Below are positions 6,470 to 55,592 of a stretch of 64,000 nucleotides of DNA, in pieces (position 1 is the stretch's first letter; every line of letters begins with the position of its first letter). The notes below the pieces were generated by a model that saw only the letters and a list, made by a program, of their open reading frames with translations, was not told where the DNA came from and did not search any database. Source of the DNA: Dehalococcoidia bacterium (GTDB lineage: Bacteria > Chloroflexota > Dehalococcoidia > Lucifugimonadales > UBA3495); the NCBI GenBank assembly GCA_965204865.1, contig OZ242027.1:935550-999549 (forward strand), read 5' to 3'. A program made the position numbers and the translations under genes.

Positions 6470-8023
6470 CTAACTCCCGGCCACCCAATCCGCCACCCGC
6501 TCGCCAATCATTATGGCGGTGGCGTTGGTGTTGGCGCGGGTCACCTGGGGCATGATGGACGAGTCGGCCACCCACAGGCCGCTGACGCCCCGGACGCGGC
6601 ACTGCTGGTCGGTGACCGCCATGCCATCGCCGTCCGGCCCGATGCGACAGGTGCCGGAAACGTGGCGGGAGCTGCCCAGGGTCTGGCGAATCCAGCTATC
6701 CAGCTCGCCGTCATTGGCTAGAATCTCGTCGGTAGGAGCGATGCGGCCCTCTGAGATGCCCTGGTATGCGTCGGATTCCAGGATGCTGCACGCCAGCTTC
6801 ACCGCGTCGCGCATCCGGCGCATATCGTTCTCGTTGTGCAGGTAGCGGTAGTTGATGGACGGCTGAACGGCCGGATCGGAAGACTGCAACCGCACCCAGC
6901 CCGAGCCGTCGGGCAGTTCCAGGGCGCAGGCGATGCGGGCCGTTCCCGACGGCACCATTTCGCCGGTCATAATGTTCCAGACGGCCAGTGTGTGCAGCAT
7001 CACGTCGTTGGGGTGGGATGGCGGCTCCGAGGTGACTCGCAAACCGAAGCGCAGGGCCTCGGCGTTGGCTGTCAACTTGACGTCTTCATTCACCTGGAAG
7101 GTCACGGACCCCATGGGGTGGTTGAACAGGTTTTGCCCCACGCCGGGCGATTCCACCAGCACCGGGACGCCGTGCTCTTCCAACTGATCGCGGGGCCCGA
7201 CCCCTGAAAGCATCAGGATATGGGGCGACTTGAGGGCGCCGGCACACAGCACTACCCGGTCGCACGTCACGGTGAATATCTCACCACCGCTCTCCGCCTC
7301 GACGCCCATCACCTGCCATTCCCGCTCATCCTGAGCTTGTCGAAGGATGACGCGGCGGACGAAGACGTTCCCGCGTATCGTCAGGTTCAACCTGTGCCGG
7401 ACTGGTGTGAGGTGGGTGATGTTGGTGCTCATCCGCCAGCCGCTGCGGTTGTTCATGGGGATGGCGCCGATGCCGCCGGAGTTGGGGCCGTTGAGGTCGT
7501 GGTTGGGCGGGTAGCCGCGCTCCATGCACGCTTGGTAGAAGGCCCGCTGTACTTCCGGCCATTCTTCGTTTTCCCGGCGCACTATGGGCAGCGGGCCGTC
7601 GGTACCGTGGAAGTCGTCCTGGATATCCATGTCGGTCTCGGACCTGCGGTAGTAGGGCAACACCTTCAGGTAGCCCCATTCGTCGTTGCCGAAGGACTCC
7701 CATCGCTCGAAGTCCTCGGGCAGTCCGCGCAGGAACACCTGCCCGTTGATGGAACCCGAACCGCCGATGACCTTGCCCTGCGCGATGTTGATTTCGCCCT
7801 GCTGGTCGTTGATGACGCCGCGCAGGTTCCAGGATATGTCTGAACCGATGGCCTCCCCCTCGGAGGAGTGACCATTACGCACCGGCTCCGGTAAGAATTC
7901 AGGGTCCGGGTAGTCGGACCCTGCCTCCAGCAGCAGCACCGAACGCTGCGGGTCTTCCGAGAGCCGGCTGGCAATCACCGACCCTGCCGAACCGCCGCCA
8001 ACTACGATAACGTCGTACTTCAT
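6470..8023 (-). CDS. GMC-family oxidoreductase (choline/alcohol dehydrogenase-like)
   Basis: 517 aa. MKYDVIVVGGGSAGS FAD-binding start and a C-terminal GTCRIG...VADSSIMP...NTNATAIMIGER signature. Carries the REP-B element in-frame (VILRQAQDERE). Confidence 0.9.
   Translation of the reverse strand: MKYDVIVVGGGSAGSVIASRLSEDPQRSVLLLEAGSDYPDPEFLPEPVRNGHSSEGEAIGSDISWNLRGVINDQQGEINIAQGKVIGGSGSINGQVFLRGLPEDFERWESFGNDEWGYLKVLPYYRRSETDMDIQDDFHGTDGPLPIVRRENEEWPEVQRAFYQACMERGYPPNHDLNGPNSGGIGAIPMNNRSGWRMSTNITHLTPVRHRLNLTIRGNVFVRRVILRQAQDEREWQVMGVEAESGGEIFTVTCDRVVLCAGALKSPHILMLSGVGPRDQLEEHGVPVLVESPGVGQNLFNHPMGSVTFQVNEDVKLTANAEALRFGLRVTSEPPSHPNDVMLHTLAVWNIMTGEMVPSGTARIACALELPDGSGWVRLQSSDPAVQPSINYRYLHNENDMRRMRDAVKLACSILESDAYQGISEGRIAPTDEILANDGELDSWIRQTLGSSRHVSGTCRIGPDGDGMAVTDQQCRVRGVSGLWVADSSIMPQVTRANTNATAIMIGERVADWVAGS
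7326..7350 (+). repeat. REP-B copy 1 (consensus GTCATYCTGAGCTTGTCGAAGRATG), inside the GMC CDS
   Basis: TCATCCTGAGCTTGTCGAAGGATGA, read on the coding (minus) strand as ILRQAQDE. Confidence 0.85.
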
Positions 8024-8203
8024 AGCTGTTCCTCAATAATGCAACAATGTCGCGCCGATTCTACACCCTTCCGCCGTTCCGGGCTATGCGGGCCGGGAGC
8101 GCTAGCGAGTCGACATCCCGTTGACGATGTTCTGCCCGCTGACTATGATTGCCCGCACTGGCACCCTAGATATATCGGGAAGACTTTCCCGCGAGGTTGC
8201 AAG

Positions 8204-8737
8204 ATGATTACCGACCTGCCGACGCTGCTTCGTTACTTCGACCGCTTCCACCAGCGCACGGTGCGGGACATCCTGGCGCTGCCCCCGGAGGCCGACGGCT
8301 GGCGGCCGCCCCGGGGAGAGGGGGAGAAGGCTTGGAACATCAATGAAATCGTGCATCACATCGCCGAGTCCCGCCTCTACTTCGCCAGCGCCTACTGCGA
8401 CCGGGGCTGGCTCTACGACTGGCCCGTTCCCAGCACCGAGCGGCAATCGGACTGGATTCCGGCTATCGAGGCCTCCTTTGAGGAGTTCCACCGCCGCCTC
8501 GACGACAGCCCCCCGGAGTGGCTGCAACGCCGGGTCAAGATGATAGACACCGATGGGATGCTGAGCGGGTGGCGCATAATGATGATGCTGTTCGAGCACG
8601 AGGTGCATCACCGGAGCCAGATAGACACCTATGCGGGGTTGGAAGGGTGGGACGTGCCGCACATCTACGGCCGGTCACGCGAGAGCATAGACGATTTGCA
8701 GGAGGAGCAGCGCAAGCGGGCGGGGTTGGAAACTTAG
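8204..8737 (+). CDS. DinB-family (DinB/YfiT-like metal-dependent) protein
   Basis: MITDLPTLLRYFDRFHQRT...IVHHIAESRLYF...FEHEVHHRSQ has His-rich helix-bundle motifs typical of DinB-like proteins. ATG 8204 chosen over the upstream track start. Confidence 0.7.
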   Translation: MITDLPTLLRYFDRFHQRTVRDILALPPEADGWRPPRGEGEKAWNINEIVHHIAESRLYFASAYCDRGWLYDWPVPSTERQSDWIPAIEASFEEFHRRLDDSPPEWLQRRVKMIDTDGMLSGWRIMMMLFEHEVHHRSQIDTYAGLEGWDVPHIYGRSRESIDDLQEEQRKRAGLET

Positions 8738-8744
8738 CAGAAGT

Positions 8745-9116
8745 TTAGAGAGGGAAGCCGGTCATTAGAAGACCTTCGACCGGGATTAGCTTCTGTCCGA
8801 CCGGATCAACAGCCAGGAACGCGCCTTCGAGTGCCAAGGCGCCCAACAGCGCTGGAGTTCCCTCTTCGTTGAATACGAACTGAGTAGTGAACTCCTTTCC
8901 TGCGAGCCTGATACGGGTCTCTCCGAAAGGCATTTCCCGTACTTCCCCCTGAGCGAACCGAAACCGCTCCGTATACAGCGGCCTCACGCCCAAGTCTTGC
9001 AGGACGCTGGCCGCGACGGAAGTTAGGGATGCGCCAGTGTCCACCAACGCCTCTATCTGCTGCCAACGCTGACCTTGCGCATCCCCTACGCTGATTTCGA
9101 CGTAGAACGTTCCCAT
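8745..9116 (-). CDS. Small retropepsin-like (clan AA) aspartic protease-fold protein
   Basis: 123 aa with a VDTGAS motif. Paralogue of 6057..6416. Lies 27 nt downstream of 9144..9620 on the same strand. Confidence 0.65.
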   Translation of the reverse strand: MGTFYVEISVGDAQGQRWQQIEALVDTGASLTSVAASVLQDLGVRPLYTERFRFAQGEVREMPFGETRIRLAGKEFTTQFVFNEEGTPALLGALALEGAFLAVDPVGQKLIPVEGLLMTGFPL

Positions 9117-9143
9117 AGTTCCGGCAACCTGCTATTCGGGATG

Positions 9144-9620: not shown

Positions 9621-9728
9621 CTAAATCTATCCTCCGATAATCAGTTTGGAATGAAGATGAATTGGATTTAACCCGAAACTACCACAGGCGGGCGGTGAAT
9701 ACAATCGCGGCCCCTGCCGTCCCTGTCC

Positions 9729-10484
9729 TTACGGGTTTATGAGGCTGCTACGGTTTTCGACGATGAACGTCTCGCGCCGCTCCACAAAGTCCATAATCAC
9801 GTTGACCAGCGCGTCGGGCCGGTCTACTGCGACGGCGTGGCCCGCATCGTAGACGTAGCAGACGTTGCAGTTGGGCGCCCGCTCTTTCCACACTCCACCG
9901 GCTTCCCGGGAAACCAGCCGGTCCTCCTGCCCGAACACCGCCAGGATGGCGCATGACAGGCCCGGCAGCAAATCGGCGGCGTCGCTATTCGCTGCGTCCC
10001 AACGCTCTGACATCGCGGCCAACGCTTCCGTCCGACTTGGGGTCTGCGGAATTTGAGTGTTGTCTCCGGGGTGAGCCAGCATCACATTCATGGCCAGCTC
10101 CGGCGTGTTCCATGACAGTGGTTTCCCGGACCCGATGCAGGTCGGAGAGACCAGCGCCAGTGCGGATACGGACGCAGGGCGTAGCAGTCCCAGGCGCATG
10201 GCAACATCCGCGCCCAGTGAAGTACCGATTAGCGCATAAGCATTCAGCCCACAGGCTTCGACGACCGCGGCAACGGCTTCGGACGCATCCCGCGCCGAAC
10301 CCGGCATCCTGCTGGCATCGGGTGGTTCGATGCTGATGACCCGGTATCGGGAGGCCAGTACGTCGGCCAGCGCCGATGTTTCCCACGGCGTCCAGTCCAG
10401 CAGCACCACCGGTTCCCCGGCGCCGGATTCTGAGAAGCGCAGTCCTTCGACAAGCTCAGGCTGACTATCTTTTGCTGATGCCAT
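9729..10484 (-). CDS. Alpha/beta hydrolase
   Basis: 251 aa. Nucleophile elbow GTSLG and C-terminal DAGHAV. Starts 4 nt after the stop of the upstream LLM gene. The N-terminus contains a reverse-oriented REP-B copy (QPELVEGL). Confidence 0.8.
   Translation of the reverse strand: MASAKDSQPELVEGLRFSESGAGEPVVLLDWTPWETSALADVLASRYRVISIEPPDASRMPGSARDASEAVAAVVEACGLNAYALIGTSLGADVAMRLGLLRPASVSALALVSPTCIGSGKPLSWNTPELAMNVMLAHPGDNTQIPQTPSRTEALAAMSERWDAANSDAADLLPGLSCAILAVFGQEDRLVSREAGGVWKERAPNCNVCYVYDAGHAVAVDRPDALVNVIMDFVERRETFIVENRSSLINP
10442..10461 (-). repeat. REP-B copy 2 (weaker), inside the alpha/beta hydrolase CDS, reverse orientation relative to the transcript
   Basis: GTCCTTCGACAAGCTCAGGC on the plus strand. 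The gene is on the minus strand, so it is read as QPELVEGL. Confidence 0.65.
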
Positions 10485-10487
10485 CGC

Positions 10488-11657: not shown

Positions 11658-12872
11658 CTACAACTCCACCAGTTCGTAGGACAGGGTGTTGAAATTCTCG
11701 TGGCCGGTTTCGGTTATGAGGATCATGTCCTCAATCTGGTAGGAGCCTAGGCTGGCGGAATAGTAGGGCGTTTCCAGGCAGAGCAGCATCCCTGGCTGGA
11801 GCTCGCTGTGCTCGGTGGCGCTGATAAAGGGCGGCTCCTCAACGAAAGTGTCCAGTCCAATGGAATGCCCGTAATGGCCGCGGCTGTATCCGGGGAATCC
11901 GCGGGCTTGCATGATTTCGTCCGCTACACGGTATACCGCCGAAATGGGCGTTCCCGGGCGTATCAGCTCACGGGCGGCGGCGTGGGCTTCGGCCAGCGCG
12001 TCGTGTACCCGGCGCTGCTCGCCGGAGGCGCGTCCGAAGGAGAAAGTGCGCCCGCAGTCGCTGTAAAAGCCGCCGACGGCAACGCCGCAGTCGAACTTTA
12101 TCAGGTCGCCGGAGCCCAGCCCGCTTCTGTCGCCGAAACTGCTGCCGGTCCCGGCGCTGATGAAACCGTAGGCCGACTGGAACTCCCCTAGCGACGGGTC
12201 GGCAATGGCCGCTTCCAGTGCCCCCGCCTGGTACTGATACTTGATGTCCTGTGCGCTCTGGCCTTCCCGCGCCTCGTTGATGGCCCGCCGCAGGCCAGCC
12301 TCAAATAGCCTTGCCGCGTTGCGGTGCATCTCGATTTCCTGCGGATGCTTGATGGCCCGCAGGCCGTAGAGCATTCCGGTCACATCCACAAACTGGCATT
12401 CGGGATTGTTCTGTTGCAGACGGAACAGGAAATCGGCGTAGACATAACGCAGGTCTATGCCCACGGTTGCGGCGGACAACCCCCGTTCTTCCAGCATCGA
12501 GGTAAGCGTTTCGTCCAACTCGTCCGGGTTCCACTGGGGCGGACGGGAGATGCGCGCGTCGCCGCCCGAAGGCCCGGTGATGACGTCCAGGTCGCGGTTC
12601 TCCACCCACATCTGGTAGGTGCGAATATCCTCGATCGAGGTTACTGCTCTGGCGGCCGGGGCCGCGAAATCGCTGGTCATAAGCGCTGCGGGCAGGGACG
12701 GATCGGCGGGAATCAGGGCCATGTCCGTGCCCATCAGGCGGAAAGACAGGTTAACCACCGGGCTGAAGAAGCCGGTGGTATAGAAGATGTTGGCTGGCGT
12801 GGTGACCAGGCAGGCGTCGATTTCCAGGCGCTGCAACTCTTCCTGTACCCGGCGGCGGGCGTCGTCGAACAT
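11658..12872 (-). CDS. M24-family metallopeptidase (Xaa-Pro peptidase/creatinase-like)
   Basis: Creatinase-type N-domain (IDACLVTTPANIFYTTGF) and a pita-bread C-domain (HYGHSIGLDTFVEEPPF...YQIEDMILIT). Start set at ATG 12872 (MFDDARRR); the track ORF extends further upstream. Confidence 0.8.
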   Translation of the reverse strand: MFDDARRRVQEELQRLEIDACLVTTPANIFYTTGFFSPVVNLSFRLMGTDMALIPADPSLPAALMTSDFAAPAARAVTSIEDIRTYQMWVENRDLDVITGPSGGDARISRPPQWNPDELDETLTSMLEERGLSAATVGIDLRYVYADFLFRLQQNNPECQFVDVTGMLYGLRAIKHPQEIEMHRNAARLFEAGLRRAINEAREGQSAQDIKYQYQAGALEAAIADPSLGEFQSAYGFISAGTGSSFGDRSGLGSGDLIKFDCGVAVGGFYSDCGRTFSFGRASGEQRRVHDALAEAHAAARELIRPGTPISAVYRVADEIMQARGFPGYSRGHYGHSIGLDTFVEEPPFISATEHSELQPGMLLCLETPYYSASLGSYQIEDMILITETGHENFNTLSYELVEL

Positions 12873-18035: not shown

Positions 18036-19493
18036 CTACTGGGTAATCGGAACCCGCTCCGTGGTGCCGTCGGGCAGAACTTTCAGGCCCACGATGGGAG
18101 CGATTTTCTCGTTGAACAGGGCAATGATGTTGTCCCGGTTGTCCTCGTCCTGTCGGCTGATGAACCCGGGCACCACGTGCTGGGTGGCTACCACGTTTCT
18201 CATGTGGTCCATAAGCGCGTCGGAGAACTCCTGGTATTCCAGGCCAGCGTCAATGTTGCGCTGAATCCATACTTCGTTCCACGCCGGGGTTACGCGGATG
18301 GCCTCCAGCTCGTGGCGCGCACCTTCCTCCTCCAGGATTTTCTGGATGTCTTCGGGCAGGCCGTTCCAAACGTCGGCATTGACAATGACGGTATTGAGCA
18401 GTTGGCTGGACAGCGGCCCGACCATGTAGTTGGTCACTTCGTACCAGCGCTGGGCGTGGGCGGCGAAAGCCACGGTCACGCCGCAGTCCAAGATGCCGCG
18501 CTCCAGGGCTGTGTATACCTCGGCGAAGGCCACGAACTGGGCGTTGGCGCCGAAGCCCTCGATCCAGTCGGAAAGGGCTGAGCCGTGGCTGCGCACCTTC
18601 CGTCCCTCAAAGTCCGCCAGTTCCGTGATGCCTTCCTTGCAGAAGAAGAACTGGTCGCCGCCGGAAACCCACATATGCGAGATCACCTTGCCGCCGTCGG
18701 TGTTTTCCGAGAACAGGCGGTCCAGCTCGGGCCCGATGGCCTGCGTCACCTTGAACTCGACTTCATGGTCAGGGTAGACGCCGTACATGATGGCCAGCTC
18801 GGCTTCCGGCATATGGCCGGAGACGTAGCCGCTGGTGATTTCCGCCCAGGACAGAGTTCCGTTGGTTACCTGCTCGAGGGAGTCCGGGCCGGCGATGCCC
18901 AGCTCCGGGAATGAAGTGATGGGAACCAGCACCTTCCCGTTGGTGCGGGCCTCAACCTGGGGCTTGAAGAAGTTGGCCCAGAGTTCACAGGGGGCCACGG
19001 TGCGGTTGATGCAGGCGAACTGGATTTCGATGGGTTCGCCGTCGTAGGTCATTTCCGTAGGATTGGTGAAGTTGGCCTTATCCACCAAGTCCTTGTAGTA
19101 GTCGGAATCGAAGAGATAGCTCTCCCGCTCCAGCCCGGCCAGGTTGACCATATCGTCGGCGTCGCCCAAGCCCTCGGCCGGGGCCGGACCCACCAGGGAG
19201 CTGAAGTCGCCGTCGCCCAGGTAGAAGGCGCCGGGGCCGCCGGCCCGTGCTTCGGCGGCAGCCAACAGGGCTGGGTCAACATCCGAGTCGGTCATCGCCG
19301 GGGCTTCGGTGGGTTCCTCTTGCATTGCCGCTTCCGTGGGGGTGGGGGCTGCGGTGGGCGCGACAGTTGGGGCCTCTGTTGGAACTGCGGTGGGCGGAGG
19401 TTCCGTGGGAACCGGGGTAGCCGCCTCGCCACAGGCCAGCACAAGGGCCATCAGCAAAATCAGTAGTCCAGCCAGCAGGGATGCCTTTATCAA
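18036..19493 (-). CDS. TRAP-type (DctP-family) solute-binding lipoprotein, array copy 3
   Basis: MIKASLLAG...LVLACGE lipobox, linker and DctP-like core. Closest to copies 1 and 2. Confidence 0.8.
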   Translation of the reverse strand: MIKASLLAGLLILLMALVLACGEAATPVPTEPPPTAVPTEAPTVAPTAAPTPTEAAMQEEPTEAPAMTDSDVDPALLAAAEARAGGPGAFYLGDGDFSSLVGPAPAEGLGDADDMVNLAGLERESYLFDSDYYKDLVDKANFTNPTEMTYDGEPIEIQFACINRTVAPCELWANFFKPQVEARTNGKVLVPITSFPELGIAGPDSLEQVTNGTLSWAEITSGYVSGHMPEAELAIMYGVYPDHEVEFKVTQAIGPELDRLFSENTDGGKVISHMWVSGGDQFFFCKEGITELADFEGRKVRSHGSALSDWIEGFGANAQFVAFAEVYTALERGILDCGVTVAFAAHAQRWYEVTNYMVGPLSSQLLNTVIVNADVWNGLPEDIQKILEEEGARHELEAIRVTPAWNEVWIQRNIDAGLEYQEFSDALMDHMRNVVATQHVVPGFISRQDEDNRDNIIALFNEKIAPIVGLKVLPDGTTERVPITQ

Positions 19494-19543: not shown

Positions 19544-19568
19544 CCCATCCTGAGCTTGTCGAAGGACG
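19544..19568 (+). repeat. REP-B copy 3, in the 5' leader of TRAP-SBP3
   Basis: CCATCCTGAGCTTGTCGAAGGACGG, between the putative -10 box and the start codon. Confidence 0.8.
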
Positions 19569-23347: not shown

Positions 23348-23950
23348 TCAGCGGGCGGCAAGAGGCGAGGGGCCGGAAAGTCCGCCGCCGGTTATGGCCC
23401 GGTGCAGGGCCACCACCGAGCGGGCCAGCGATTGCAGGTCGGCCACGGCCTGCGGGTCGGCAAGCTGGCCGTCCTGGAAGTGGCGGGATTGCAAGTACAC
23501 CATCCCCGGAACGACATGAGCGCCGAACCAGGCCAGCACGGGACGCAGTTGGGCGTCAATGCTCAGGTAGTGGTGGTCGGTGGCGCCCATGCCGATAAGC
23601 CCGCAGGCTTTTCCTTGCAGCCCCTCAGCCGGCACATGGTCCAGCAGGTTCTTCAGCGCGCCAGTGAAAGAGGCCCGGAAGACGGGGGTGGCGATGAGGT
23701 ACATATCGGCGGCAATCACCCGCTCCACCGCTGTCTGGGTGTCGTCATCGTAGCCGGAAAGGGGCCGCCCGTCGGCGAAAGATATGCGGTGGTCGCCCAG
23801 ATGCAGCGTATCCGCTATCGTTCCCTCTCCCTCTGGGAGAGTGTTAGGGTGAGGGAACCCTTCCAGCCCGGACAGCGCTGCTTGTATCGCCTGATACAGC
23901 CGCCCCGGCCGGGTCACGGTTCCGTGGATGGCGAGCAGGGTTGCGGGCAT
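23348..23950 (-). CDS. NAD(P)H-dependent FMN reductase-like flavoprotein
   Basis: MPATLLAIHGT...IATPVFRASFTGALKNLLDHV matches the FMN_red-type motif. Start ATG 23950. Contains an in-frame REP-A copy (GFPHPNTLPEGEG). Confidence 0.75.
   Translation of the reverse strand: MPATLLAIHGTVTRPGRLYQAIQAALSGLEGFPHPNTLPEGEGTIADTLHLGDHRISFADGRPLSGYDDDTQTAVERVIAADMYLIATPVFRASFTGALKNLLDHVPAEGLQGKACGLIGMGATDHHYLSIDAQLRPVLAWFGAHVVPGMVYLQSRHFQDGQLADPQAVADLQSLARSVVALHRAITGGGLSGPSPLAAR
23821..23855 (-). repeat. REP-A copy 3, inside the FMN reductase CDS
   Basis: TTCCCTCTCCCTCTGGGAGAGTGTTAGGGTGAGGG, translated in-frame as PHPNTLPEGEG. Confidence 0.8.
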
Positions 23951-23990
23951 ACTGCCTCTCCTTGAAACGCCTCTCAATCGCTGGGGACGC

Positions 23991-24024: not shown

Positions 24025-24025
24025 T

Positions 24026-25366
24026 TTAACGGGATGCGCCCGCCTTCCGTGCCGCGGTGTAGCGGTTTTCGGGCTTGGGCAGGCCCAGGTTGCCGCGCAG
24101 GGTTTCGGATTCGTACTCGGTACGGAAGAGGCCGCGCTCCTTCAGGATGGGCAGCACGTGGTCAACAAAGTCGTCAAAGCCTTGGGGCAGCACTGCGCCG
24201 CTGAGCATGAAGCCGTCGGCTGCGCCCGACTCGAACCATTCCTGCATCGTGTCGGCCACCTGTTCCGCCGTTCCGATGAACTCGTGGCGTGGCGTGGTGA
24301 CCTGCTGGGCCATCTCCCTCAGTGTCAGTTCCTTCTCGCGGGCGGTCTTCTTTATGCTGTCGGTGGAGCTTTCCCAGCCGTTGCGTCCGAAGTCGCCCAG
24401 CTCCGGGAAGGGCGCGTCGAGGTTGTATTGGGTGAAGTCCAGGTCGTTGAAGTAGCGGCCCAGGTAGTTGAGGGCCTGGTTGACTTCCACCAGCCCGGCG
24501 ATTTCGAGGTACTTTTCCTCGGCCTCCTCGGCTGTGCGGCCCACGATGGGAGAGCAGCCAGGCAGTATCAGGACTTCGCCGGGGTTGCGACCAGCGGCCG
24601 CGGCACGGCCTTTCACGTCGCTGCTGAACTCCTCGGCGCTGGCCCGGTTGGCCTGGCCGGTGAAGACCGCGTCCGCAATCTTGGCCGCGAAGCCACGACC
24701 GGCCTCCGATGAGCCAGCCTGAATCAGCACCGGCCTTCCCTGCGGTGAGCGGGATATGTTCAGAGGGCCCTGCACCGAGAAAAATTCCCCTTGATGGTTC
24801 AGCCGGTGCATCTTGTCGGGGTCAATGAACTCGCCGCTGGCCCGGTCTCGGATGAAGGCGTCATCTTCCCACGAGTCCCACAGGCCCTTGGCAATCTCGA
24901 TATACTCGGCGGCCATCCGGTAGCGCAGGTCGTGAGCCGGATGCTCCGGTTTATTGTAGTTCAGCGCCGAGCCTTCCAGCGGCGAGGTTACGACGTTCCA
25001 ACCAGCGCGCCCGTTGGAAATGTGGTCAATGGACATAAACTGCCGCGCCACGGTGTAAGGGTCGCTGTAAGTGGTGGACAGGGTGGCCGCCAGGCCGATG
25101 TGGGTGGTGTCCATTGCCAGGGCTGCCAGAAGGGTAAGGGGCTCGAAGCGGTTGAGGAAGTTGGGATGCGACTTTTCGCTGATGTACAGCCCGTCGCCAA
25201 AGAAGGCGAAGTCCAGCTTGGCGTTTTCGGCCTTCCTGGTAAGCCGCCGGTAGTAATCGAGGTTGATGGCGGCGTCCGGCACGGCGGTGGGGTGCCGCCA
25301 CGACGCCATGTTGGAGCCCGTGCCGGCCAGGAAGGTCCCGATGCGCATCATTCGCCGTTCAGCCAT
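24026..25366 (-). CDS. LLM-class monooxygenase, NtaA/SnaA/DszA subfamily
   Basis: 446 aa. [20 protein letters not shown] start and length are typical of the NtaA/DszA group. Directly upstream of the FMN reductase gene. Confidence 0.85.
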
Positions 25367-25378: not shown

Positions 25379-25403
25379 GTCATTCTGAGCTTGTCGAAGA
25401 ATC
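25379..25403 (+). repeat. REP-B copy 4, intercistronic
   Basis: GTCATTCTGAGCTTGTCGAAGAATC, between the LLM stop and the NtaA-like start. Confidence 0.85.
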
Positions 25404-25433: not shown

Positions 25434-26468
25434 CTAATCTATCAGCCCGCCCAGCAGCTCGAAGGAGCGCAGCCGCTTCTCGAAGCTGTCTATAGCGGTC
25501 ACTGCGATTATCTCATCAGCGCCGTACTTTTGGCGCACTTCCAACAACTGCCGCCGCACCGATTCGGGCGCGCCGTGAACCACGCCCGCCTGACGCACGG
25601 TGATTTGGTAGCCCTCTCCCGACTGTTTCCCGAACTCTTCGCCCGCCTCAACGCTGCCGACGGTAAGGGTGCGCCCGCTATCCAGCGTTATGCGGACGAC
25701 CTGTATCTTGGCGGCGTGTTCCGCTGCTTCCTCGTCGGTGTCGGACACAATGATGGGCAAGGCCAGCATCGTATAAGGCCAACCCACTCTCCCACAGGGA
25801 GAGGGTTGGGGTGAGGGTGTTCTTGCAGCGTCGGAACCGGCCTGGTAGCGGCGCACGGCTTCGGCCATCTCGTCCTCGTCGTTGTTGAGGAACAGTGCGA
25901 AGACGTAGGGCATTGCCAGTTCCGCCGCCATGTCGCCGCTGGAGCGGGTCGTCCCCAGCAGGAACAGGTCGGGCGGCCGCGGCGGCAGGGGACTGGCCTG
26001 CAACCCGTACAGGGGATGCTCCGGCTCCAGTTCGTCGTGCAGGAACCGCCGTAGCTCCCCCAGCTTCTCGGCCAGGTTCATGGCAGGTTCGCCATCCCCG
26101 CGCCGCAGAGCCGCCGTGGAGCGGGGCAGCCCGCCCGGCCCGCGCCCGATGCCCAGGTCAACCCGCCCCGGAGCCAACGACGCCAGCACGTTGAAATTCT
26201 CGGCCACCTTGTAGGGGCTGTAATGCTGCAACATCACTCCGCCGGAGCCGACCCGGATGCGCGAGGTATGGGCCAGCAGGTGCGAGACCAGCACCTCCGG
26301 CGACGACCCCATCACCCGCCCGGAGCCGTGATGCTCCGCTACCCAGAAGCGGTGATAACCCCACTCTTCGGCCTTCTGCGCCAGCTCTATGGTATGGCGC
26401 AGGGCGTCAACAGGGCTGTCCGATTCATGGACCGGGCTTTGATCGAGGATGCTCAGCTTGAGGCTCAT
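25434..26468 (-). CDS. LLM-class flavin-dependent oxidoreductase (group-1 luciferase-family type)
   Basis: [13 protein letters not shown]...[17 protein letters not shown]. Contains an in-frame REP-A-like copy ([14 protein letters not shown]). Confidence 0.8.
25779..25817 (-). repeat. REP-A copy 5 (variant), inside an LLM CDS
   Basis: CCAACCCACTCTCCCACAGGGAGAGGGTTGGGGTGAGGG, translated in-frame as [14 protein letters not shown]. Confidence 0.7.
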
Positions 26469-30997: not shown

Positions 30998-32557
30998 ATG
31001 AAATACGACGTAATCGTAATCGGAGCCGGTTCCGGCGGCGGCGCCCTCGCCACCCGGCTGGCCGAAGACCCCAACCGCTCGGTGCTGCTCTTGGAGGCCG
31101 GGCCGGACTACGTTGACCTGGAGCAGACGCCGGACGACCTGAAGTTCGGGTACGCTCCGCGGGCGTCGGAGATGGGGGCGCCGCACAACTGGTCGTTCAC
31201 CGGCAAGGGCAGCGCGACCCGCTCCGAGGACGTGGTGGTGCCGCGCGGCAAGGTGGTCGGTGGCACCAGCGCCATCAACGGGCAGGTGTTCCTGCGCGGC
31301 GTCCCGGAGGACTACGACAGTTGGGCCGAGTGGGGCAATGACGAGTGGTCTTTCGTGAAGTGTCTGCCCTATTTCCGCAAACTGGAAACCGATACGGACA
31401 TCGTGGACGACTTCCACGGGTTCGACGGCCCGGTGCCGGTGCGCCGCCACAGGCGTGAGGCTTGGCTGCCTCTGGCGGAGGCGTTCCACGTGTCGGCTAT
31501 GGCGTCGGGCTATGCCGAGGTCTATGACCACAACCACCCGGATTCCAGTGGCGTCGGCCCGTTGCCCATGAACAACCCCAACGGCGTGCGGATGAGTACC
31601 GCGCTCACTTACATCACCAACAACCGGCACCGGCTCAACTTCACCATCCGCGGCAACGTGCTGGTGCGCCGCATCCTGTTCGATGATGGTTCGACAGGCT
31701 CACCACGAGCGGTTGGCGTAGAGGTCGAGAGCGGCGGCGAGACCTTCACCGTCGAGAGCGAGCAGGTGGTTCTCTGCGCCGGGGCCGTCGCCTCCCCGCA
31801 GATACTGATGCTCTCGGGTGTCGGCCCGGCGGGCCATTTGCAGGATATGGGGGTGCCGGTGGTCAAGGACCTGCCGGGCGTGGGCCAGAACCTCCGCGAT
31901 CATCCCCTGTGCGCTGTCCGCGTCAAGACCAAGCCGGATTTCCCGCTGGACCCCGACGCGCCGCGTATCCAGACGGTGCTGAGGTATACGGCGACGGGTT
32001 CCGACCTGCGTAATGATATGCAGATTCTGCCCTCGTCCTTCTCCACGCCCCTGGGTGGTGACCCCTATGCCGAGGAGGGCATTCGCTTCACCTGCATCCT
32101 GGAGCTGGCCAAGAGTTCTGGGGAAATCAGGCTGCGCTCCACGACGCCAGGTGACAACCCGGACATCAACTGTCGCCACCTGGAGGAGGAATTCGACCGC
32201 GAGCGGATGCGCGAGGCGATTCGGATGTCCTTCCAGTTCATGGAGCATGATTCCTTCGGGGACATCGTGGAGGAGCCCATCTCCCCTACCCGCGAGGAAA
32301 TCGAGTCTGACGACGCCCTGGACGCCTGGATGCTGGAAACGGTGGACATAGGTCAGCACCTCTCCGGCACCTGCAAGATGGGCCCGGCCAGCGACCCCAT
32401 GGCGGTGGTGGACCAGTTCGGCGGCGTCCACGGCATCGAGAACCTGCGCGTTGCAGACGCCTCGGTGATGCCGGATGTGATCCGGGCGAACACCAACCTG
32501 ACCACCATAATGATTGGCGAGCGGGTGGCCGACTGGATTGTCCAGCAGACGGGGTAA
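30998..32557 (+). CDS. GMC-family oxidoreductase
   Basis: 519 aa. MKYDVIVIGAGSGGG start and GTCKMG...VADASVMP...NTNLTTIMIGER end. Paralogue of 6470..8023. Confidence 0.9.
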   Translation: MKYDVIVIGAGSGGGALATRLAEDPNRSVLLLEAGPDYVDLEQTPDDLKFGYAPRASEMGAPHNWSFTGKGSATRSEDVVVPRGKVVGGTSAINGQVFLRGVPEDYDSWAEWGNDEWSFVKCLPYFRKLETDTDIVDDFHGFDGPVPVRRHRREAWLPLAEAFHVSAMASGYAEVYDHNHPDSSGVGPLPMNNPNGVRMSTALTYITNNRHRLNFTIRGNVLVRRILFDDGSTGSPRAVGVEVESGGETFTVESEQVVLCAGAVASPQILMLSGVGPAGHLQDMGVPVVKDLPGVGQNLRDHPLCAVRVKTKPDFPLDPDAPRIQTVLRYTATGSDLRNDMQILPSSFSTPLGGDPYAEEGIRFTCILELAKSSGEIRLRSTTPGDNPDINCRHLEEEFDRERMREAIRMSFQFMEHDSFGDIVEEPISPTREEIESDDALDAWMLETVDIGQHLSGTCKMGPASDPMAVVDQFGGVHGIENLRVADASVMPDVIRANTNLTTIMIGERVADWIVQQTG

Positions 32558-44693: not shown

Positions 44694-45736
44694 CGACCAG
44701 GATTCTTCGACAAGCTCAGAATGACAACGAGAACGCCCGTCCGGTCAGAAAGGAACCAGGGGAGATAATCCTGCAAGTCCGGGATCTCCGCACCTGGTTC
44801 TACACCCGCGCCGGCATCGTCAAGGCAGTTGACGGGATAGACTTCGAGCTGCGTCAGGGCGAGACCCTGGGCATAGTCGGCGAGTCCGGCTGCGGCAAGA
44901 GCATGACCGCTCGCTCGTTGCTGCGGCTGGTGCCGAAGCCCGCCGGGCGCATTGTTAGCGGCCAGATACTGCTGGAAGGCGAGGACCTGGTCCAGAAGAG
45001 CGAAGAGGAAATGCGCCAGGTTCGCGGGAAGCGCATTTCCATGATTCTGCAAGACCCGCAGACCTCCCTGAACCCGCTGTACACCATCGGCAACCAGTTG
45101 CGGGAAGCCTTGGGCCAGGCCCACAGGGAAAACAGCAGGAACATGGTGCGGCGGGCCATAGACGCTCTGCGCAGCGTCAACGTGGCCGCGCCGGAGCGCC
45201 GCCTGCACGACTACCCTCACCAGATGAGCGGCGGTATGAAGCAGCGGGTGGTGGGGGCCATCTCTATATCCTGCGAGCCATCGGTTATCATCGCGGATGA
45301 GCCTACCACGGCGTTGGACGTCACCATTCAGCTTCAATACCTGCGTCTGCTCAAGGAAATCCAGGAAGAAACCGGCCTGGCGATTATCTTCATCACCCAC
45401 GACTTTGGCGTGGTGGCCCGGATGTGCGACCGGGTGGCAGTGATGTACGCCGGACGCATCGTGGAACAGGGGCCGGTGCGGGACATATTCAACAATCCGT
45501 CCCACCCCTATACCGAGGCGTTGATAGCGTCGGTTCCCAAGCTGGAGGAGAGGGTGGAGTGGCTGTATTCCATCGAAGGCCAGCCGCCCCTGCTGCGCGA
45601 CCTGCCGCCCGGATGCCGGTTCGCGCCGCGCTGCCCCGAGGCCCGGGAGCAGTGCCTGGCCGAGTACCCGACGTCGTACCAGGTCGGCGCCGGACACACC
45701 GCCGATTGCTGGAGGTTGGATACCTCATGGCAGTAG
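44690..45736 (+). CDS. ABC transporter ATP-binding protein (DppD/OppD-like)
   Basis: ATG 44690 overlaps the upstream TGA (ATGA). [27 protein letters not shown]. The N-terminal tail carries REP-B ([12 protein letters not shown]). Confidence 0.9.
44701..44725 (-). repeat. REP-B copy 5, inside the ABC ATPase CDS (N-terminal tail)
   Basis: GATTCTTCGACAAGCTCAGAATGAC, read as ILRQAQND. Confidence 0.85.
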
Positions 45737-46746
45737 CTAACCAGGACGCAGAGATTCTCCGATCGGCTCAGAATGACGGCGAGCCGCTAATCAGGGTCGA
45801 GAACCTGCAAAAGCACTTCCCGGTTACCCAGGGTCTCATACTGATGAAGACCATCGGCCACGTTCAGGCGGTTGATGGCATCAGTTTCACCATTGATGAA
45901 GGCAAGACCTTGGGGCTGGTTGGGGAGTCGGGCTGCGGCAAGACGACGACCAGCAAGCTGCTGCTTCGCATAGAACGGCCCACCGGCGGGCAGATTAAGC
46001 TCTATGGCGAGGACATTCAGGACTTCCGGGGCGAAAAACTGAAGGAGTACCGCACCACTGTCGGAGCGGTTTTCCAGGACCCCTGGTCGTCTCTCAGTCC
46101 CAGGATGCGGGTGCGCGACATTGTGGCCGAATCGCTGGTCGTGAACCGGGGCGAGATGTCCCGGGAAGAGATGGACGACCGGGTTGCCGAGGTGTTGGAA
46201 CAGGTGGGGCTGCACAAGGAGCAGGCGCACCAGTACCCCCACGAGTTCAGCGGCGGCCAGCGCCAGCGCATCGCCGTCGCCAGCGCGCTGGTGTCTCACC
46301 CCAAACTGATTGTCTTGGATGAGCCGGTATCGGCGCTGGACGTTTCCATTCGCGCCCAGGTGATGAACCTGCTGAAGGTGTTGCAGAACGAATTCAATGT
46401 TGCCTTCCTGCTCATCGCCCACAACCTGGCTACAGTGCGCTACATGGCCCAAGACACCGCCGTGATGTACCTGGGACAGATTGTGGAGTACGGGGACACC
46501 GAGGAAATCTATCAGAACCCGCTGCATCCCTACACCCGGGCGTTGTTCTCAGCAGCTTTGCCCTCTCATCCCGACCTGATACGCGAGGACATCGTGCTGA
46601 CCGGCGAGGTGCCTTCGCCCATCAACCCGCCCAGCGGCTGCCGGTTCCACCCCCGCTGCCCCTTTGCCATGGACCGCTGCTCGGTGGAAGTGCCGGAATA
46701 CAAGGAAGTAGCGCCGGGCCACATGACGAGCTGTCACCTGTATTAG
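45727..46746 (+). CDS. ABC transporter ATP-binding protein (DppF/OppF-like)
   Basis: ATG 45727 overlaps the upstream gene end by 10 nt. [29 protein letters not shown]. The N-terminal tail carries a REP-B variant ([12 protein letters not shown]). Confidence 0.9.
45753..45777 (-). repeat. REP-B copy 6 (variant), inside the ABC ATPase CDS (N-terminal tail)
   Basis: GATTCTCCGATCGGCTCAGAATGAC, read as ILRSAQND. Confidence 0.7.
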
Positions 46747-49396: not shown

Positions 49397-49422
49397 TTGG
49401 GAGACTGCGAATTTTGAGTCGG

Positions 49423-50652: not shown

Positions 50653-50672
50653 GGGAGAGAACCTCCAAAATT

Positions 50673-50698
50673 TTCTCTCCCACTGAGGGAGAGGGTGA
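50673..50698 (-). repeat. REP-A copy 10 (truncated)
   Basis: TTCTCTCCCACTGAGGGAGAGGGTGA. Confidence 0.6.
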
Positions 50699-50719
50699 AA
50701 AGTTAGGAAAGGAAACTGC

Positions 50720-51712: not shown

Positions 51713-51723
51713 TCTTCGTCTCC

Positions 51724-52692: not shown

Positions 52693-52844
52693 ATAGCGGG
52701 AAAGCTCCTGAGTTGTTGATATAGGAGTGAGGAAATTGAGACTAGGGGATTATAGCCGAAATTCGTATCAACTGCTCCGCTTTCCCGCAGACAAATTGAT
52801 TCTGCGCCCCAGCTTGCTATTCCCTATGGTAAACTTCCATAGCT

Positions 52845-54014
52845 ATGAAACGAAGCACGGAACGGATACTTACTACCCACACCGGGAGCTTGCCCCGTCC
52901 TCAGCCTATGCTCGACTTGCTGCTCCGGCAGCAGCAGGGGAAACTGGATGACGAGGCACAACTCCACCAGTCGGTGCGTGGTGCCGTGGCCGATGCTGTG
53001 TCGTGGCAGGTGGAATGCGGACTCGACGTCATTAACGACGGGGAGATGGGGCGGGTGGACTATACCGTCTTCGTCAAAGACCTGCTGACCGGGTTCGAGG
53101 GCGAGAGTATGCCGCCCATCGGGGCGGGAGACGATGAGTTCCCAGAGTTGGGGGAGTTGCTGCGTCCCTTTGCTTCGCCCTTCCAGGTACGCCCCGCTTG
53201 TGTCGGGCCGGTGGACTGGAAGGACTGGCCGTCGTTCCGGCGCGACCTGGACAATCTGGCCGCCGCCCTTCGACAAGCTCAGGATGATCGGGGCGGCGCG
53301 GTGTGCGAGGAAATGTTTATGACCTCGCCTTCGCCGGGGCAGATAGCGCGTTTCCTGCACAACCGGTATTACGATGACGATGAGACTTACCTGTATGCGC
53401 TGGGCGACGTGATGAAGCGGGCGTATGAGGCCATCGTCAACGCCGGGTTCCTGCTGCAACTGGACTGCCCCGACCTGGCCCTGAGCCGCAGCACCGTCTT
53501 CGCTCACCTTACGCTGGAGGAGTTTCGGCGGGTCATTCGGATGCACGTGGAAGCGCTGAATCACGCCGTCGCCGCCATCCCCGAAGACCGGATGCGGATG
53601 CACCTGTGCTGGAGCAGCACCATGGGGCCGCATCACACCGACGTGCCGTTGCGCGACATCGTGGACATTGTGCTGGAAGCCAAGCCCGCCGCCTTTTCCT
53701 TCCCGGCGGCCAACCCACGCCACGGCCACGAGTGGAAGATATGGCAGGACATCAAGCTGCCGGAGGGCAAGACGGTTATCCCCGGAATGATAGATTCCAC
53801 ATCCAACTTCGTGGAGCATCCCGAATACGTCGCCGAGCGCATTGTGCGCTACGCCGGGGTCGTGGGCCGGGAGAACCTGCTGGCGGGGGCCGATTGCGGC
53901 TTTGGCACTTTTGCGGGAAGGCTCCAAGTGGATTCCAAAATCGTGTGGATGAAGCTGGCCTCGCTGGTGGAGGGCGCGCGCCTGGCTTCGCAAGAGCTGT
54001 GGCCCCATCGGTAG
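52845..54014 (+). CDS. Cobalamin-independent methionine synthase (MetE C-terminal)-like family protein
   Basis: MKRSTERILTTHTGSLPRP...GLDVINDGEMGR...MHLCW... is the pattern of the MetE-like family II proteins. Carries REP-B in-frame (ALRQAQDDRG). Confidence 0.75.
   Translation: MKRSTERILTTHTGSLPRPQPMLDLLLRQQQGKLDDEAQLHQSVRGAVADAVSWQVECGLDVINDGEMGRVDYTVFVKDLLTGFEGESMPPIGAGDDEFPELGELLRPFASPFQVRPACVGPVDWKDWPSFRRDLDNLAAALRQAQDDRGGAVCEEMFMTSPSPGQIARFLHNRYYDDDETYLYALGDVMKRAYEAIVNAGFLLQLDCPDLALSRSTVFAHLTLEEFRRVIRMHVEALNHAVAAIPEDRMRMHLCWSSTMGPHHTDVPLRDIVDIVLEAKPAAFSFPAANPRHGHEWKIWQDIKLPEGKTVIPGMIDSTSNFVEHPEYVAERIVRYAGVVGRENLLAGADCGFGTFAGRLQVDSKIVWMKLASLVEGARLASQELWPHR
53266..53289 (-). repeat. REP-B copy 7, inside the MetE-like CDS
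   Basis: CCCTTCGACAAGCTCAGGATGATC, read as ALRQAQDD. Confidence 0.8.
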
Positions 54015-54124
54015 CGCTCAGGCCGCGAGGCCGTGGCCGAAGATCGCCTGGCCCGTCATCCGACAGGGGTTGGCAGGCGCAACGGCGCGCCGTAGATCGC
54101 TTCCCACCGGCGCTGCTGGCCGCC

Positions 54125-54553
54125 TTGGCCGGGGCCGGACTGGTGATTGTCGGCTCCGCCGTCGGCCCGTGGGCCAACGTTGCCGGCGAGCTGCACGTCG
54201 GCGGGCAAATCGAGCGCTTTCAGATTGACGGCATGGTCGGCGACGGGGTGTTTACTCTGTCGTTGTCCGCTGCCGCCGCATTGCTGATTCTGTGGCGCCT
54301 GTCATTTGTATGGAGACGGCGAGGTCGGGCCAGCGGTTTCCTGACCGGACTGGCGGTCGTGCTGTTGCTGGTATCGGCAGTGATAGGAATGCTCAACTGG
54401 GTGGACATAGACAATATGCCGGGCGTCTACGTACCGGGCAAGCACTTTCACAGCGACGCCCGGGCCGCGTGGGGGCTGTTGACCACCACCTTCGGGGCGG
54501 CCATCGGCACAGTGGCGATGACCTATCAGGTCTGGAAAGACGAACTGCGGTAG
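54125..54553 (+). CDS. Hypothetical small membrane protein; start uncertain
   Basis: 3-4 hydrophobic segments (LAGAGLVIVGSAV..., VFTLSLSAAAALLILW..., LTGLAVVLLLVSAVIGML..., LLTTTFGAAIGTVAM). Candidate starts are TTG 54125, GTG 54143 and ATG 54232. The upstream part of track ORF 53606.. overlaps the MetE-like gene. Confidence 0.35.
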   Translation: MAGAGLVIVGSAVGPWANVAGELHVGGQIERFQIDGMVGDGVFTLSLSAAAALLILWRLSFVWRRRGRASGFLTGLAVVLLLVSAVIGMLNWVDIDNMPGVYVPGKHFHSDARAAWGLLTTTFGAAIGTVAMTYQVWKDELR

Positions 54554-54611
54554 ACATGGCGGGGATTCCTGCTTTCCCTGGAATGACGCCCTATGTGGCA
54601 GGAGAGCGACA

Positions 54612-55592
54612 ATGGTTGCATCGCAAGGACTGGAAAGGACGCAATTCGACCCGGCGGCAGTTGACCCGGATACGGCGGCTTTCGTCGCTGACCTGGAGGC
54701 GCGGCTGGCGACGATATCGCCGCCGCAGGTTGTGGGTATACAGGCAGTGCGGGAGGCGGCCCGGTCGGGACAGTCTTTCTTCGGTCCGGTCATACACTCC
54801 GACATCGCCGCCGACCGGGTGGTAAACAGCCCGGCCCTTCGACAAGCTCAGGATGGATTGACGCTGCGGGTATTCACTCCGCCGCTGGTCAACGGGGTTT
54901 ACCTGCACTTCCACGGAGGGGGTTGGGCGCAGGGGGCGTCGGACTTGCAAGACCCGCGACTGGAGCGCGTCGCCAGGGAGTGCGAGGTGGCCGTCATCAG
55001 CGTTGACTACCGGCTGGCCCCGGAGCATCCGTATCCGGCTGGCCCAGACGACGCGGAGACCGCCGCGCTGTGGCTGGCCCGCAACGCCGCCGCTGAGTTC
55101 GGGACGGACAGGCTGGTCATCGGCGGGGAGTCCGCCGGGGCGCACCTGTCGGCGGTGGCCCTGCTACGCCTGCGCGACCGGCACGGGCTGGCCGACGCAT
55201 ACTGCGGCGCGAACCTGCTGTACGGGGCCTACGACCTGACGCTCACGCCCAGCGTCCGCGCTTGGGGCGACCGTTACGTGGTACTGAGCGAGCCATACAT
55301 CAACTGGTGCCTGGATATGTTCGTACATGCTGAGAAGCGTACAAACCCGGACGTGTCGCCTCTCTACGCCGACCTGGCAGGACTGCCTCCCGCCCTCTTT
55401 TCGGTGGGGACGATTGACCCATTGCTGGACGACACGCTGTTCATGCACGCCCGCTGGCTGGCCGCCGGAAACGAGGCTGCGATCGCAGTACACCCCGGCT
55501 TGCCTCACGCCTTTCCGTTAATGCCCATGAAGGCGTCCGAGGCAGCCAATGAGCGGTGCAACGAGTTCATCCGGCAGGTTATCAGCCGTTAG
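54612..55592 (+). CDS. Alpha/beta hydrolase, hormone-sensitive-lipase-type esterase
   Basis: HFHGGGW oxyanion motif, GGESAGAHL nucleophile elbow, and C-terminal HPGLPHAF. Carries REP-B in-frame (ALRQAQDGL). Confidence 0.85.
   Translation: MVASQGLERTQFDPAAVDPDTAAFVADLEARLATISPPQVVGIQAVREAARSGQSFFGPVIHSDIAADRVVNSPALRQAQDGLTLRVFTPPLVNGVYLHFHGGGWAQGASDLQDPRLERVARECEVAVISVDYRLAPEHPYPAGPDDAETAALWLARNAAAEFGTDRLVIGGESAGAHLSAVALLRLRDRHGLADAYCGANLLYGAYDLTLTPSVRAWGDRYVVLSEPYINWCLDMFVHAEKRTNPDVSPLYADLAGLPPALFSVGTIDPLLDDTLFMHARWLAAGNEAAIAVHPGLPHAFPLMPMKASEAANERCNEFIRQVISR
54835..54856 (-). repeat. REP-B copy 8, inside the esterase CDS
   Basis: CCCTTCGACAAGCTCAGGATGG, read as ALRQAQDG. Confidence 0.8.

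Follow-up and report, generated by a model that had tools for sequence, protein, structure and literature searches.

Why should one short DNA sequence stand in-frame inside several unrelated enzyme and transporter genes of a single genome, and be read mostly as the same peptide, LRQAQD? This question is raised by REP-B, a hairpin repeat in 64,000 nt of contig OZ242027.1 (assembly GCA_965204865.1) from a Dehalococcoidia bacterium; this whole stretch is referred to here as the window. Based on sequence comparison, the REP-B copies are recent insertions, neither ancestral motifs nor equal-length overwrites, since close relatives have empty versions of nearly every site. We favor, with a probability of about 0.7, the reading that REP-B is a short non-autonomous hairpin repeat resembling the CGTC-tagged repetitive extragenic palindromes (REPs), that it has been spreading recently, and that its genic copies are the survivors of a filter.

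A scan of the window located the 15-nt core CTGAGCTTGTCGAAG at seven exact sites (7331+, 10445-, 19550+, 25385+, 44705-, 53268-, and 54837-). A relaxed scan added an eighth, degenerate copy at 45757- (CTGAGCCGATCGGAG) and a site with three mismatches at 31689-, which is a ninth copy, a sister variant (GTGAGCCTGTCGAAC) in a paralogous GMC oxidoreductase gene. With up to three mismatches to the 25-nt consensus, six sites were found in the window and none in dinucleotide-preserving shuffles; the 15-mer with up to two mismatches occurred on average 0.16 times in the shuffled window, at most twice. The eight copies described in an earlier note on this DNA (seven exact cores and one degenerate) are therefore real, with a chance expectation of 0. 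Translation reproduced all peptides quoted there, and Pfam agreed with the host families: a GMC oxidoreductase, an alpha/beta hydrolase, two OppD/F-type ABC ATPases, a MetE-like protein (Meth_synt_2), and a hormone-sensitive lipase (HSL)-type esterase (Abhydrolase_3). Overall, seven of the nine copies lie in genes. The two non-coding copies were also as described: 19550 lies on the leader side of a gene for a DctP-type TRAP binding protein, and 25385 lies between genes for two luciferase-like monooxygenases. REP-B is thus an interspersed hairpin repeat that stands in-frame within unrelated genes. Seven of the eight copies have the same orientation relative to the host transcript, antisense to the element as written, and five of the six coding copies read LR(Q/S)AQ. 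The stem CATCCT/AGGATG had been proposed as a general feature, but no more than one or two copies have it. Around the core, the arms vary from copy to copy; only the GMC1 copy forms a strong hairpin (-15.7 kcal/mol, z = -3.4), and the folding z of the 25385 copy is -0.5.

Three of the six coding copies (alpha/beta hydrolase and both ABC ATPases) occupy N-terminal tails, where their coding status hinges on the start codon. The ATG of ABC1 and the stop codon of the permease gene upstream of it overlap. Because the start codons of both ABC ATPases overlap upstream genes (ATGA; ATG...TAG, ATGGCAGTAG), which supports the gene calls, the element is probably translated in both. In contigs from sponge metagenomes, word depth rises about 10-fold over the MetE-like copy (53213-53304; 466 versus ~42 in X1), with a modest rise over that in the esterase gene (54777-54868; 74 versus 44), and some public-run contigs fuse copy 7 to copy 8, skipping ~1.54 kb. 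These depth rises and joins are repeat-induced features of the assembly graph.

To compare filled and empty sites, we used three homologue searches and the DNA of syntenic relatives (loci designated L below), the close relatives having 86-96% protein identity. The homologue matches place the lineage with SAR202 and Chloroflexota, and the public runs that contain the region are sponge metagenomes. Filled and empty alleles were found at 11 sites. The net gain is 15 or 18 nt at seven of nine coding sites, the core itself being 15 nt, and 24-27 nt at one; at some sites a few host codons are replaced. Every filled/empty comparison gives a net gain of 15-27 nt (5-9 residues), contrary to the earlier proposal that the element overwrites a loop without adding residues.

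The GMC oxidoreductases illustrate this. For GMC1, most orthologues (86-95% identity) have 511-512 residues and read RRVIIE-DG-KVTGVE, which is the empty form. A filled subclade reads RRVILRQAQD(E/D)xxWQV and is six residues longer, with further expansion in some members; at the DNA level, 12 nt of the empty orthologue L241 correspond to 30 nt, a net gain of 18 nt. The paralogous GMC2 gene exceeds its syntenic orthologues L247 and L248, both without the insert, by 15 nt, and its loop DGSTGSPRA is encoded by GGTTCGACAGGCTCACCACGAGCGG, a common sister variant of REP-B in a different frame. The GMC2 loop had been described as equal in length to that of GMC1 but unrelated in sequence. The lengths are indeed equal, but the loop holds the sister variant together with arm CCGCTCGTG (31689-31703(-)), the core part being read as GSTGSP; the equal length results from a second insertion, that of the sister element. 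In a third GMC lineage, 78% identical to GMC1 and 50% to GMC2, the same turn is either filled (SGSTGSPRA) or empty (GT-NV), a difference of 15 nt. Collectively, these alignments indicate that a single beta-turn received at least three independent insertions, one in each of three lineages of GMC oxidoreductases.

The remaining sites behave similarly. The MetE-like protein reads DNLAAAT-AGTECEE when empty and DNLAAALRQAQDDRGGAVCEE when filled (net gain 24 or 27 nt), and its relatives include decayed forms (LRQVQ, LRHAQ, and LRLAQ) and expansions. The HSL-type esterase has gained exactly 15 nt relative to its empty orthologue. The ABC1 tail has gained 18 nt, with no REP-B there in L243 and L244, and the ABC2 tail shows a full copy in the window, half a remnant in L243, and nothing in L244. 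The alpha/beta hydrolase copy is kept in the relative L242, with partial tandem duplications, and a distant orthologue in L246 lacks it. The spacer that holds copy 4 is present without it in L247 and L248. Conversely, L248 is filled at two sites that are empty in the window, the second monooxygenase (VLRQAQDERD, +15 nt) and the C-terminal tail of a flavin mononucleotide (FMN) reductase (TLSLSKGDG, forward orientation, +18 nt). One related genome (L243 and L247) has 0 copies in 42 kb, versus about 1 per 7 kb in the window. The copies decay after insertion, through partial deletions among other changes. A scan of 360 retrieved homologues for element-derived peptides at other positions revealed no further independent insertions. 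In L242, the hydrolase N-terminus (7039-7130) carries three partial tandem copies of the 5' half of the element (DSHPE-AK-DSHPE-SK-NSHPEPVEGL), and similar partial arrays occur in L136, L138, L148, L161, and L234; these arrays suggest slippage or nested insertion at CATC|CTGAG.

The earlier note had also asked whether the inserts fall in loops or in the core of the fold, and predicted structures gave an answer for two hosts. In the AlphaFold model of GMC1 (predicted template modeling score, pTM, 0.84), residues 227-236 comprise the end of strand 221-229, a turn, and the start of strand 236-245, with a per-residue confidence (pLDDT) of 83-92; the insert is thus predicted to form a beta-hairpin tip. 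In the MetE-like model (pTM 0.82), LRQAQDD (residues 142-148) prolongs helix 128-148, with a loop coming next, which places this insert, in the model, at a helix end.

To account for the shared orientation and frame, we considered which frames the element leaves open. The core has no stop codon in its three reverse frames, as claimed for the other sense frames, but this holds for the core alone: with the usual adjoining arm (GGATGA or GAATGA), the third sense frame acquires a TGA in four of the five LRQAQ copies and reads STSSG-stop. Forward frames with arms read xxS-stop, where the final base of the arm and the two bases that open the core make up the TGA (e.g., CGC TCA TCC TGA), or HPELVEG-stop. 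Three of the six frames of the complete element are consequently open: reverse LRQAQDE, reverse FDKLRMS, and forward LSLSKDE. Orientation was counted as independent events in SAR202-like loci, the coding events coming from the window, L242, L246, and L248. Ten coding events are reverse and three forward, which does not differ from the 2:1 expected from stop codons (p ~0.3). The orientation bias of the coding copies thus arises because the arm stops leave two reverse frames and one forward frame open, and the RNA-level or insertion-mechanism constraint invoked earlier is not needed for it. Among the reverse coding events, LRQAQ was used seven times, FDKLR never, and STSS/STGS three times, in all three cases with arms lacking TGA. 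The 7:0 preference for LRQAQ over FDKLR (p ~0.016) is most simply read as selection that favors a hydrophilic peptide over one containing F, L, and M. Furthermore, 30 open reading frames spanning copies in other phyla were tested against Pfam; nine had a domain, and about four gave convincing intragenic copies (the CarA inter-domain linker, the MurB N-terminus, a DUF2341 protein, and the N-terminus of a NuoF fusion). Three of these four are forward, so no universal orientation rule applies.

The repeat class is, as previously noted, widespread and functionally uncharacterised. Viral contigs were scanned with the bare 15-mer and one genome per species with CATYCTGAGCTTGTCGAAGR, each yielding at least 120 loci. 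More than 120 genome loci, spread over at least 12 phyla, contain the core, as do more than 120 viral contigs; unannotated copies also lie on plasmids of cultured Rhizobium, Novosphingobium, Methylobacterium, Comamonas, and Gloeothece. Genome matches fall in Alpha- and Betaproteobacteria, Bacteroidota, Verrucomicrobiota, Lentisphaerota, Eremiobacterota, Acidobacteriota, Chloroflexota including SAR202, Patescibacteria, Dependentiae, Elusimicrobiota, Nitrospirota, Marinimicrobia, and an anammox planctomycete. Across phyla, the core is constant while the complementary flanks differ per copy (e.g., CCGTTCGTC...GATGAACGG, CACCCTCATG...CATGAGGGTG, and GTCACA...TGT). In 126 distinct viral-contig copies picked by the core only, the two pairs adjoining the core are Watson-Crick in 80-85% and include all four pair types, and the stem covariation score is 0.306, versus a shuffle mean of 0.159 (0/500 reach 0.306) and slid controls of at most 0.173. 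The first and last bases of the 15-mer also covary (C-G 389, G-C 34, T-A 11). Conversely, the center TGAG-CYTGT-CGAA is nearly invariant across copies, and its 13 nt (TGAGCYTGTCGAA) are near-invariant across phyla, with variable stems.

From these alignments, the element would comprise a tag (C/T/G)(G/C)TC, an 8-bp stem ATYCTGAG/CGAAGRAT, a 5-nt loop CTTGT, and copy-specific outer arms, and its inner stem may contain tandem G.A/A.G pairs between U-A and G-C pairs. The tags in the window are CGTC in two copies and TGTC in one, the remainder being GCTC, GATC, or degenerate; in 131 genome copies among the matches listed, the tags before ATY include TGTC (44), CCTC (38), GCTC (18), and CGTC (6), and the commonest triplets after RAT are GAG and CAG, which represent extended arms. 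The copies in at least 120 genome loci are arranged as 43 inverted pairs 20-150 nt apart, 18 tandem pairs or partial tandem arrays, and 96 singletons. Stem mismatches of the G.T versus A.C kind favor the CTGAGC strand in the viral-contig set (78 versus 48) and the opposite strand in the TCATC...GACG subfamily. Several neighborhoods deserve mention. The element lies directly upstream of a tRNA-3'-end-like sequence (GCGGGTTCGATTCCCGT...CCA) at ~4486-4540 of L128 (Eremiobacterota/Vulcanimicrobiota) and in the spacer of two tRNA-like sequences at ~7918-8000 of L154 (Dependentiae). In AT-rich genomes (genome and viral loci L147, L176, and L002/L064), an A-run precedes and a T-run follows several of the intergenic copies, which are thus laid out like a bidirectional intrinsic terminator.

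This architecture closely resembles that of the CGTC-tagged REPs (Di Nocera, De Gregorio, and Rocco 2013, BMC Genomics 14:522, PMC3733652), which include Neisseria dRS3 and Rickettsia RPE-4 and RPE-6. These stem-loops of 20-40 nt carry a terminal CGTC, in many cases changed to TGTC or CCTC, and a short unpaired tail, mostly CCA; their stem measures 8-9 bp and opens with A-T and T-A pairs, and their loop has 4-5 nt. They were reported from five phyla, mostly as head-to-head dimers and mostly between genes, with some in-frame genic copies, many at N-termini; no transposase gene is linked to them, and no REP-associated tyrosine transposase (RAYT) is known to be (PMC3733652). REP-B shares the tag set (TGTC/CCTC/CGTC), the AT start and the length of the stem, the loop of 4-5 nt (CTTGT, versus CTTGA in the R. 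palustris form by back-translation), the inverted dimers, the in-frame copies, and the occurrence in several phyla. In addition, the Sulfurovum CGTC-2 intragenic peptide RHSELVSGS (PMC3733652 supplement) is compatible with CGTCATTCTGAGCTTGT, the 5' half of REP-B, although its back-translation is ambiguous. However, two of the eight stem positions of REP-B are G.A/A.G rather than Watson-Crick, CTGAG facing CGAAG in a predicted tandem; its 15-nt center is far more conserved than its arms; the CCA tail is mostly missing; it spans at least 12 phyla, including Chloroflexota, Patescibacteria, and Acidobacteriota; and it is mostly genic in the window, whereas in other phyla few copies lie in Pfam-verified genes.

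Other known systems fit less closely. Rickettsia palindromic elements (RPEs; Ogata et al. 2000) are likewise in-frame palindromic repeats that add surface peptides to many unrelated functional genes of one lineage; however, classic RPE-1 measures 100-150 nt and adds 30-50 residues, and RPEs are described as Rickettsia-specific, whereas the REP-B core is pan-bacterial. GTAG REPs and REPINs, which RAYTs (TnpA-REP, HUH Y1 transposases) mobilize, are also short hairpins with covarying stems that occur as singlets and inverted doublets, vary in copy number by strain, and are expected to insert without target duplication, but no REP-B copy has a GTAG (GT[AG]G) tag at either end. [quoted passage not shown] DNA uptake sequences (USS/DUS) are short conserved genic oligomers with a biased frame and a preference for poorly conserved protein regions, but they are species-specific, uniformly dense, and not covarying hairpins, while the density of REP-B ranges from zero to high among close relatives. 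A literature search with exact DNA strings and the peptides LRQAQD, FDKLR, LSLSKH, and SAQNDK returned nothing relevant. Collectively, the comparison indicates that REP-B is a CGTC-type REP with in-frame genic copies, a known kind of event as in the Rickettsia RPEs, and no new biological system.

In the reading that we favor, REP-B has recently spread within a sponge-associated, SAR202-like Chloroflexota lineage and would be mobilized in trans by an enzyme that acts on the DNA hairpin and recognizes the conserved center, possibly through its tandem G.A motif. Some copies have entered genes, and those now visible would have survived a filter: they add a multiple of three bases, use one of the three stop-free frames, encode a hydrophilic, helix- and turn-compatible peptide (LRQAQD/E...), and occupy surface loops, the ends of helices, or terminal tails. 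Their orientation and frame would then be survivorship effects, and as such they provide no evidence that the coding copies do anything. Several observations weigh against this reading. A core of 13-15 nt identical over many phyla is more conservation than is usual for a purely selfish repeat and suggests that a conserved partner interacts with it. That a single GMC beta-turn received three independent insertions is more than simple tolerance would readily predict. All copies counted against presumed transcription stand at 13 reverse to 3 forward (p ~0.02), and the stop-codon filter cannot explain the non-coding share, which lies mostly at divergent promoter regions where transcription is uncertain. 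The orthologue alignments that the earlier note proposed for boundaries and target duplication delivered the empty sites but showed a target-site duplication at none of the nine filled/empty coding sites compared, where junctions are ambiguous and the genomes differ by 10-20% around the sites. A CC(C)A tail follows the stem in only a minority of copies (25385, L129, L209, and L221). The exact core is absent from the accessible parts of the text and supplements of PMC3733652, so that family membership rests on architecture and not on a published consensus. Finally, no mobilizing enzyme was identified, the neighborhoods not having been screened for Y1, HUH, or IS110 genes.

Several routes to the preferred sites were tried and rejected. 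The empty sites resembled the element arms by eye (host CGTCATC, CAGGA, CAGAAT, and TTCGAC), suggesting homology-guided insertion. However, 30-nt windows at seven empty sites, scored for their match to the element consensus, did not stand out when set beside every window of the same genes (fraction with an equal or higher score, 0.27-0.95; Fisher p = 0.68), and the recurrence at the GMC beta-turn is thus not explained by target similarity. Insertion into pre-existing hairpin loops was dropped as well; inverted repeats of 6-7 bp occur at two empty sites (HSL and GMC1) and are absent at four others inspected. Hammerhead-like and tRNA T-loop-like readings of the REP-B core were also rejected on sequence, since the hammerhead NGA and a T-stem partner, respectively, are missing.

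Among the alternatives, one that we consider unlikely is that the center TGAGCYTGTCGAA, with its predicted tandem G.A, is a hairpin recognized by a phylum-spanning DNA- or RNA-processing enzyme with a true target preference. Insertion would then proceed without target duplication and replace part of the target. If so, the three insertions at the GMC beta-turn and the four in OppD/F N-terminal tails would reflect preference rather than tolerance, and the filled/empty pairs could help define the long-missing mobilization mechanism of CGTC repeats.

It is distinctly improbable that REP-B acts as an RNA-level cis element, a transcript hairpin that modulates mRNA stability, processing, or translational coupling and for that reason shares its orientation. 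The covarying stems agree with such a role, as do the presence of CUUCGACAAGCUCAG in the presumed transcript for 13 of 16 independent copies in SAR202-like loci and the recurrence of copies at the junctions of operons and at the 5' ends of genes (one 5' leader, one intercistronic spacer, and, in four independent cases, the N-terminal tail of an OppD/F-type ATPase); moreover, the genes that flank REPs are in general mostly co-directional or convergent, and REPs are presumed to be transcribed (PMC3733652). However, otherwise conserved operons of close relatives lack copies at the same sites, substitutions and partial deletions pile up in the coding copies, several copies are nearly stemless (z = -0.5), and verified intragenic copies elsewhere are mostly forward. 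The usually transcribed strand would also turn the tandem G.A into U.C/C.U, leaving the weaker strand in the mRNA, and the mismatch counts favor different strands per subfamily. Rfam 15 gave no match in the window at the gathering score, relaxed settings returning only generic hairpins far below threshold. The sole RNA run found, a metatranscriptome with 5% of the sampled words, has no informative coverage of the region and too little to test processing.

A function as a DNA-level site that the host or another mobile element uses is comparably improbable; recombination or integration targets, sites bound by a nucleoid or repair protein, and uptake-type signals are examples, and the coding copies would be tolerated by-products of keeping up site density. 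A near-invariant center with variable stems is the pattern expected of a protein-recognized hairpin. Filamentous prophages are reported to integrate at the related CGTC-1 repeats of Neisseria (dRS3), and the uptake sequences of Haemophilus and Neisseria likewise enter genes and prefer certain frames there, both of which speak for this view. Nevertheless, the density among close relatives varies between 0 in 42 kb and 1 per 5-7 kb, unlike that of a maintained signal; the same sequence in at least 12 phyla does not suit a species-specific uptake signal; and, within the examined loci, none of the copies was seen to adjoin a prophage or insertion-sequence junction. Lastly, that LRQAQD is an ancestral or convergent protein motif, or that the copies are assembly artifacts, has almost no likelihood left and is refuted by the empty-site comparisons: the peptide is predicted with good model confidence to extend a helix or beta-hairpin, and copies 7 and 8 do show repeat-induced joins in public-run contig graphs, but most orthologues (75-95% identity) are shorter and lack the motif, non-coding DNA and other reading frames (STSS, PELVEG, and LSLSK) hold the identical nucleotide sequence, and filled alleles are found in several independent assemblies as well as in genomes and plasmids of cultured isolates.

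The coordinates of the copies are given in Table 1, together with those of other small repeats in the window. A second hairpin family is commoner than REP-B and also enters genes in-frame: it is read as PHPNTLPEGEG in an FMN reductase (23348-23977(-)), where L247 lacks it and L248 has it, and it occurs in the monooxygenase 25434-26468(-), where both relatives lack it. A copy related to the CGTCATTCCTGCTTTCGCGGGAATGACG palindrome stands in-frame in a monooxygenase of L248 (RLRGNDG). In the close relative L244, the other repeat family (CCCCACCC..CCCCCGGAGGGAGAGGG) occupies the ABC1 N-terminal tail (~440-500), where the window has REP-B, and directly adjoins a degenerate REP-B copy in the HSL-type esterase (12600-12640); the same spots therefore accept different repeats. 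The monooxygenase spacer of L248 (~9880-10000) holds a different palindromic insert of ~100 nt (GATTGTCTGAATCAAAATCTACAGGATT...) where the window has REP-B.

Table 1. REP-B copies and other small repeats in the 64-kb window.
Feature	Position	Strand	Host or location	Sequence and reading
Copy 1	7322..7355	+	GMC oxidoreductase (GMC1) 6470-8023(-)	Full hairpin CCGCTCATC / core / GATGACGCGG; ILRQAQDEREW, residues ~226-236
Copy 2	10441..10465	-	Alpha/beta hydrolase 9729-10484(-), N-terminal tail	Forward orientation; QPELVEGL, codons 8-15
Copy 3	19544..19568	+	Non-coding, ~50 nt upstream of TRAP DctP-type binding-protein gene 18036-19493(-)	Part of longer imperfect inverted repeat
Copy 4	25379..25403	+	67-nt spacer of luciferase-like monooxygenase genes 25434-26468(-) and 24026-25366(-)	CGTCATT...AATCCCA form
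Sister-variant copy	31681..31712	-	GMC2 30998-32557(+), same beta-turn as copy 1	CCGCTCGTG GTGAGCCTGTCGAAC CATCATCG; DGSTGSPRA
Copy 5	44701..44725	-	OppD-like ABC ATPase (ABC1)	ILRQAQND, codons 5-11
Copy 6	45753..45777	-	Second ABC ATPase (ABC2), N-terminal tail	Degenerate core CTGAGCCGATCGGAG; ILRSAQNDG
Copy 7	53264..53288	-	MetE-like (Meth_synt_2) gene 52845-54014(+)	Core and one arm; LRQAQDDR, residues 142-149
Copy 8	54833..54857	-	HSL-type esterase 54612-55592(+), internal	LRQAQ, ~residue 75
Second hairpin family	4846, 14428, 23823, 23996, 25783, 27647, 38372, 39397, 40587, 56750, 57872, 59872 (examples)			Consensus ~CCCTCACCCTAACCCTCTCCCAGAGGGAGAGGG; ~14 sites
Palindrome	60966-60993		Intergenic	Near-perfect CGTCATTCCTGCTTTCGCGGGAATGACG, CGTC-1 (Neisseria dRS3-like) form; would be third small-repeat family

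CGTC-type REPs were catalogued in 2013 (PMC3733652) and have no assigned enzyme, mechanism, or function. The features of REP-B that stand out are the pan-phylum invariance of its center, the repeated insertions at the GMC beta-turn and ABC ATPase N-termini, and the supply of filled/empty pairs. The lineage offers an unusually clean natural experiment, with many recent insertions, matched empty sites in sister genomes, and well-understood enzymes as hosts. Such pairs allow the inserted unit to be defined, structural target choice to be tested against sequence-based choice, and the absorption of 5-9 additional residues by proteins to be measured at hairpin tips and helix ends. For annotation, recurrent LRQAQD, STGSP, PELVEG, and LSLSK peptides in predicted proteins are repeat-derived.

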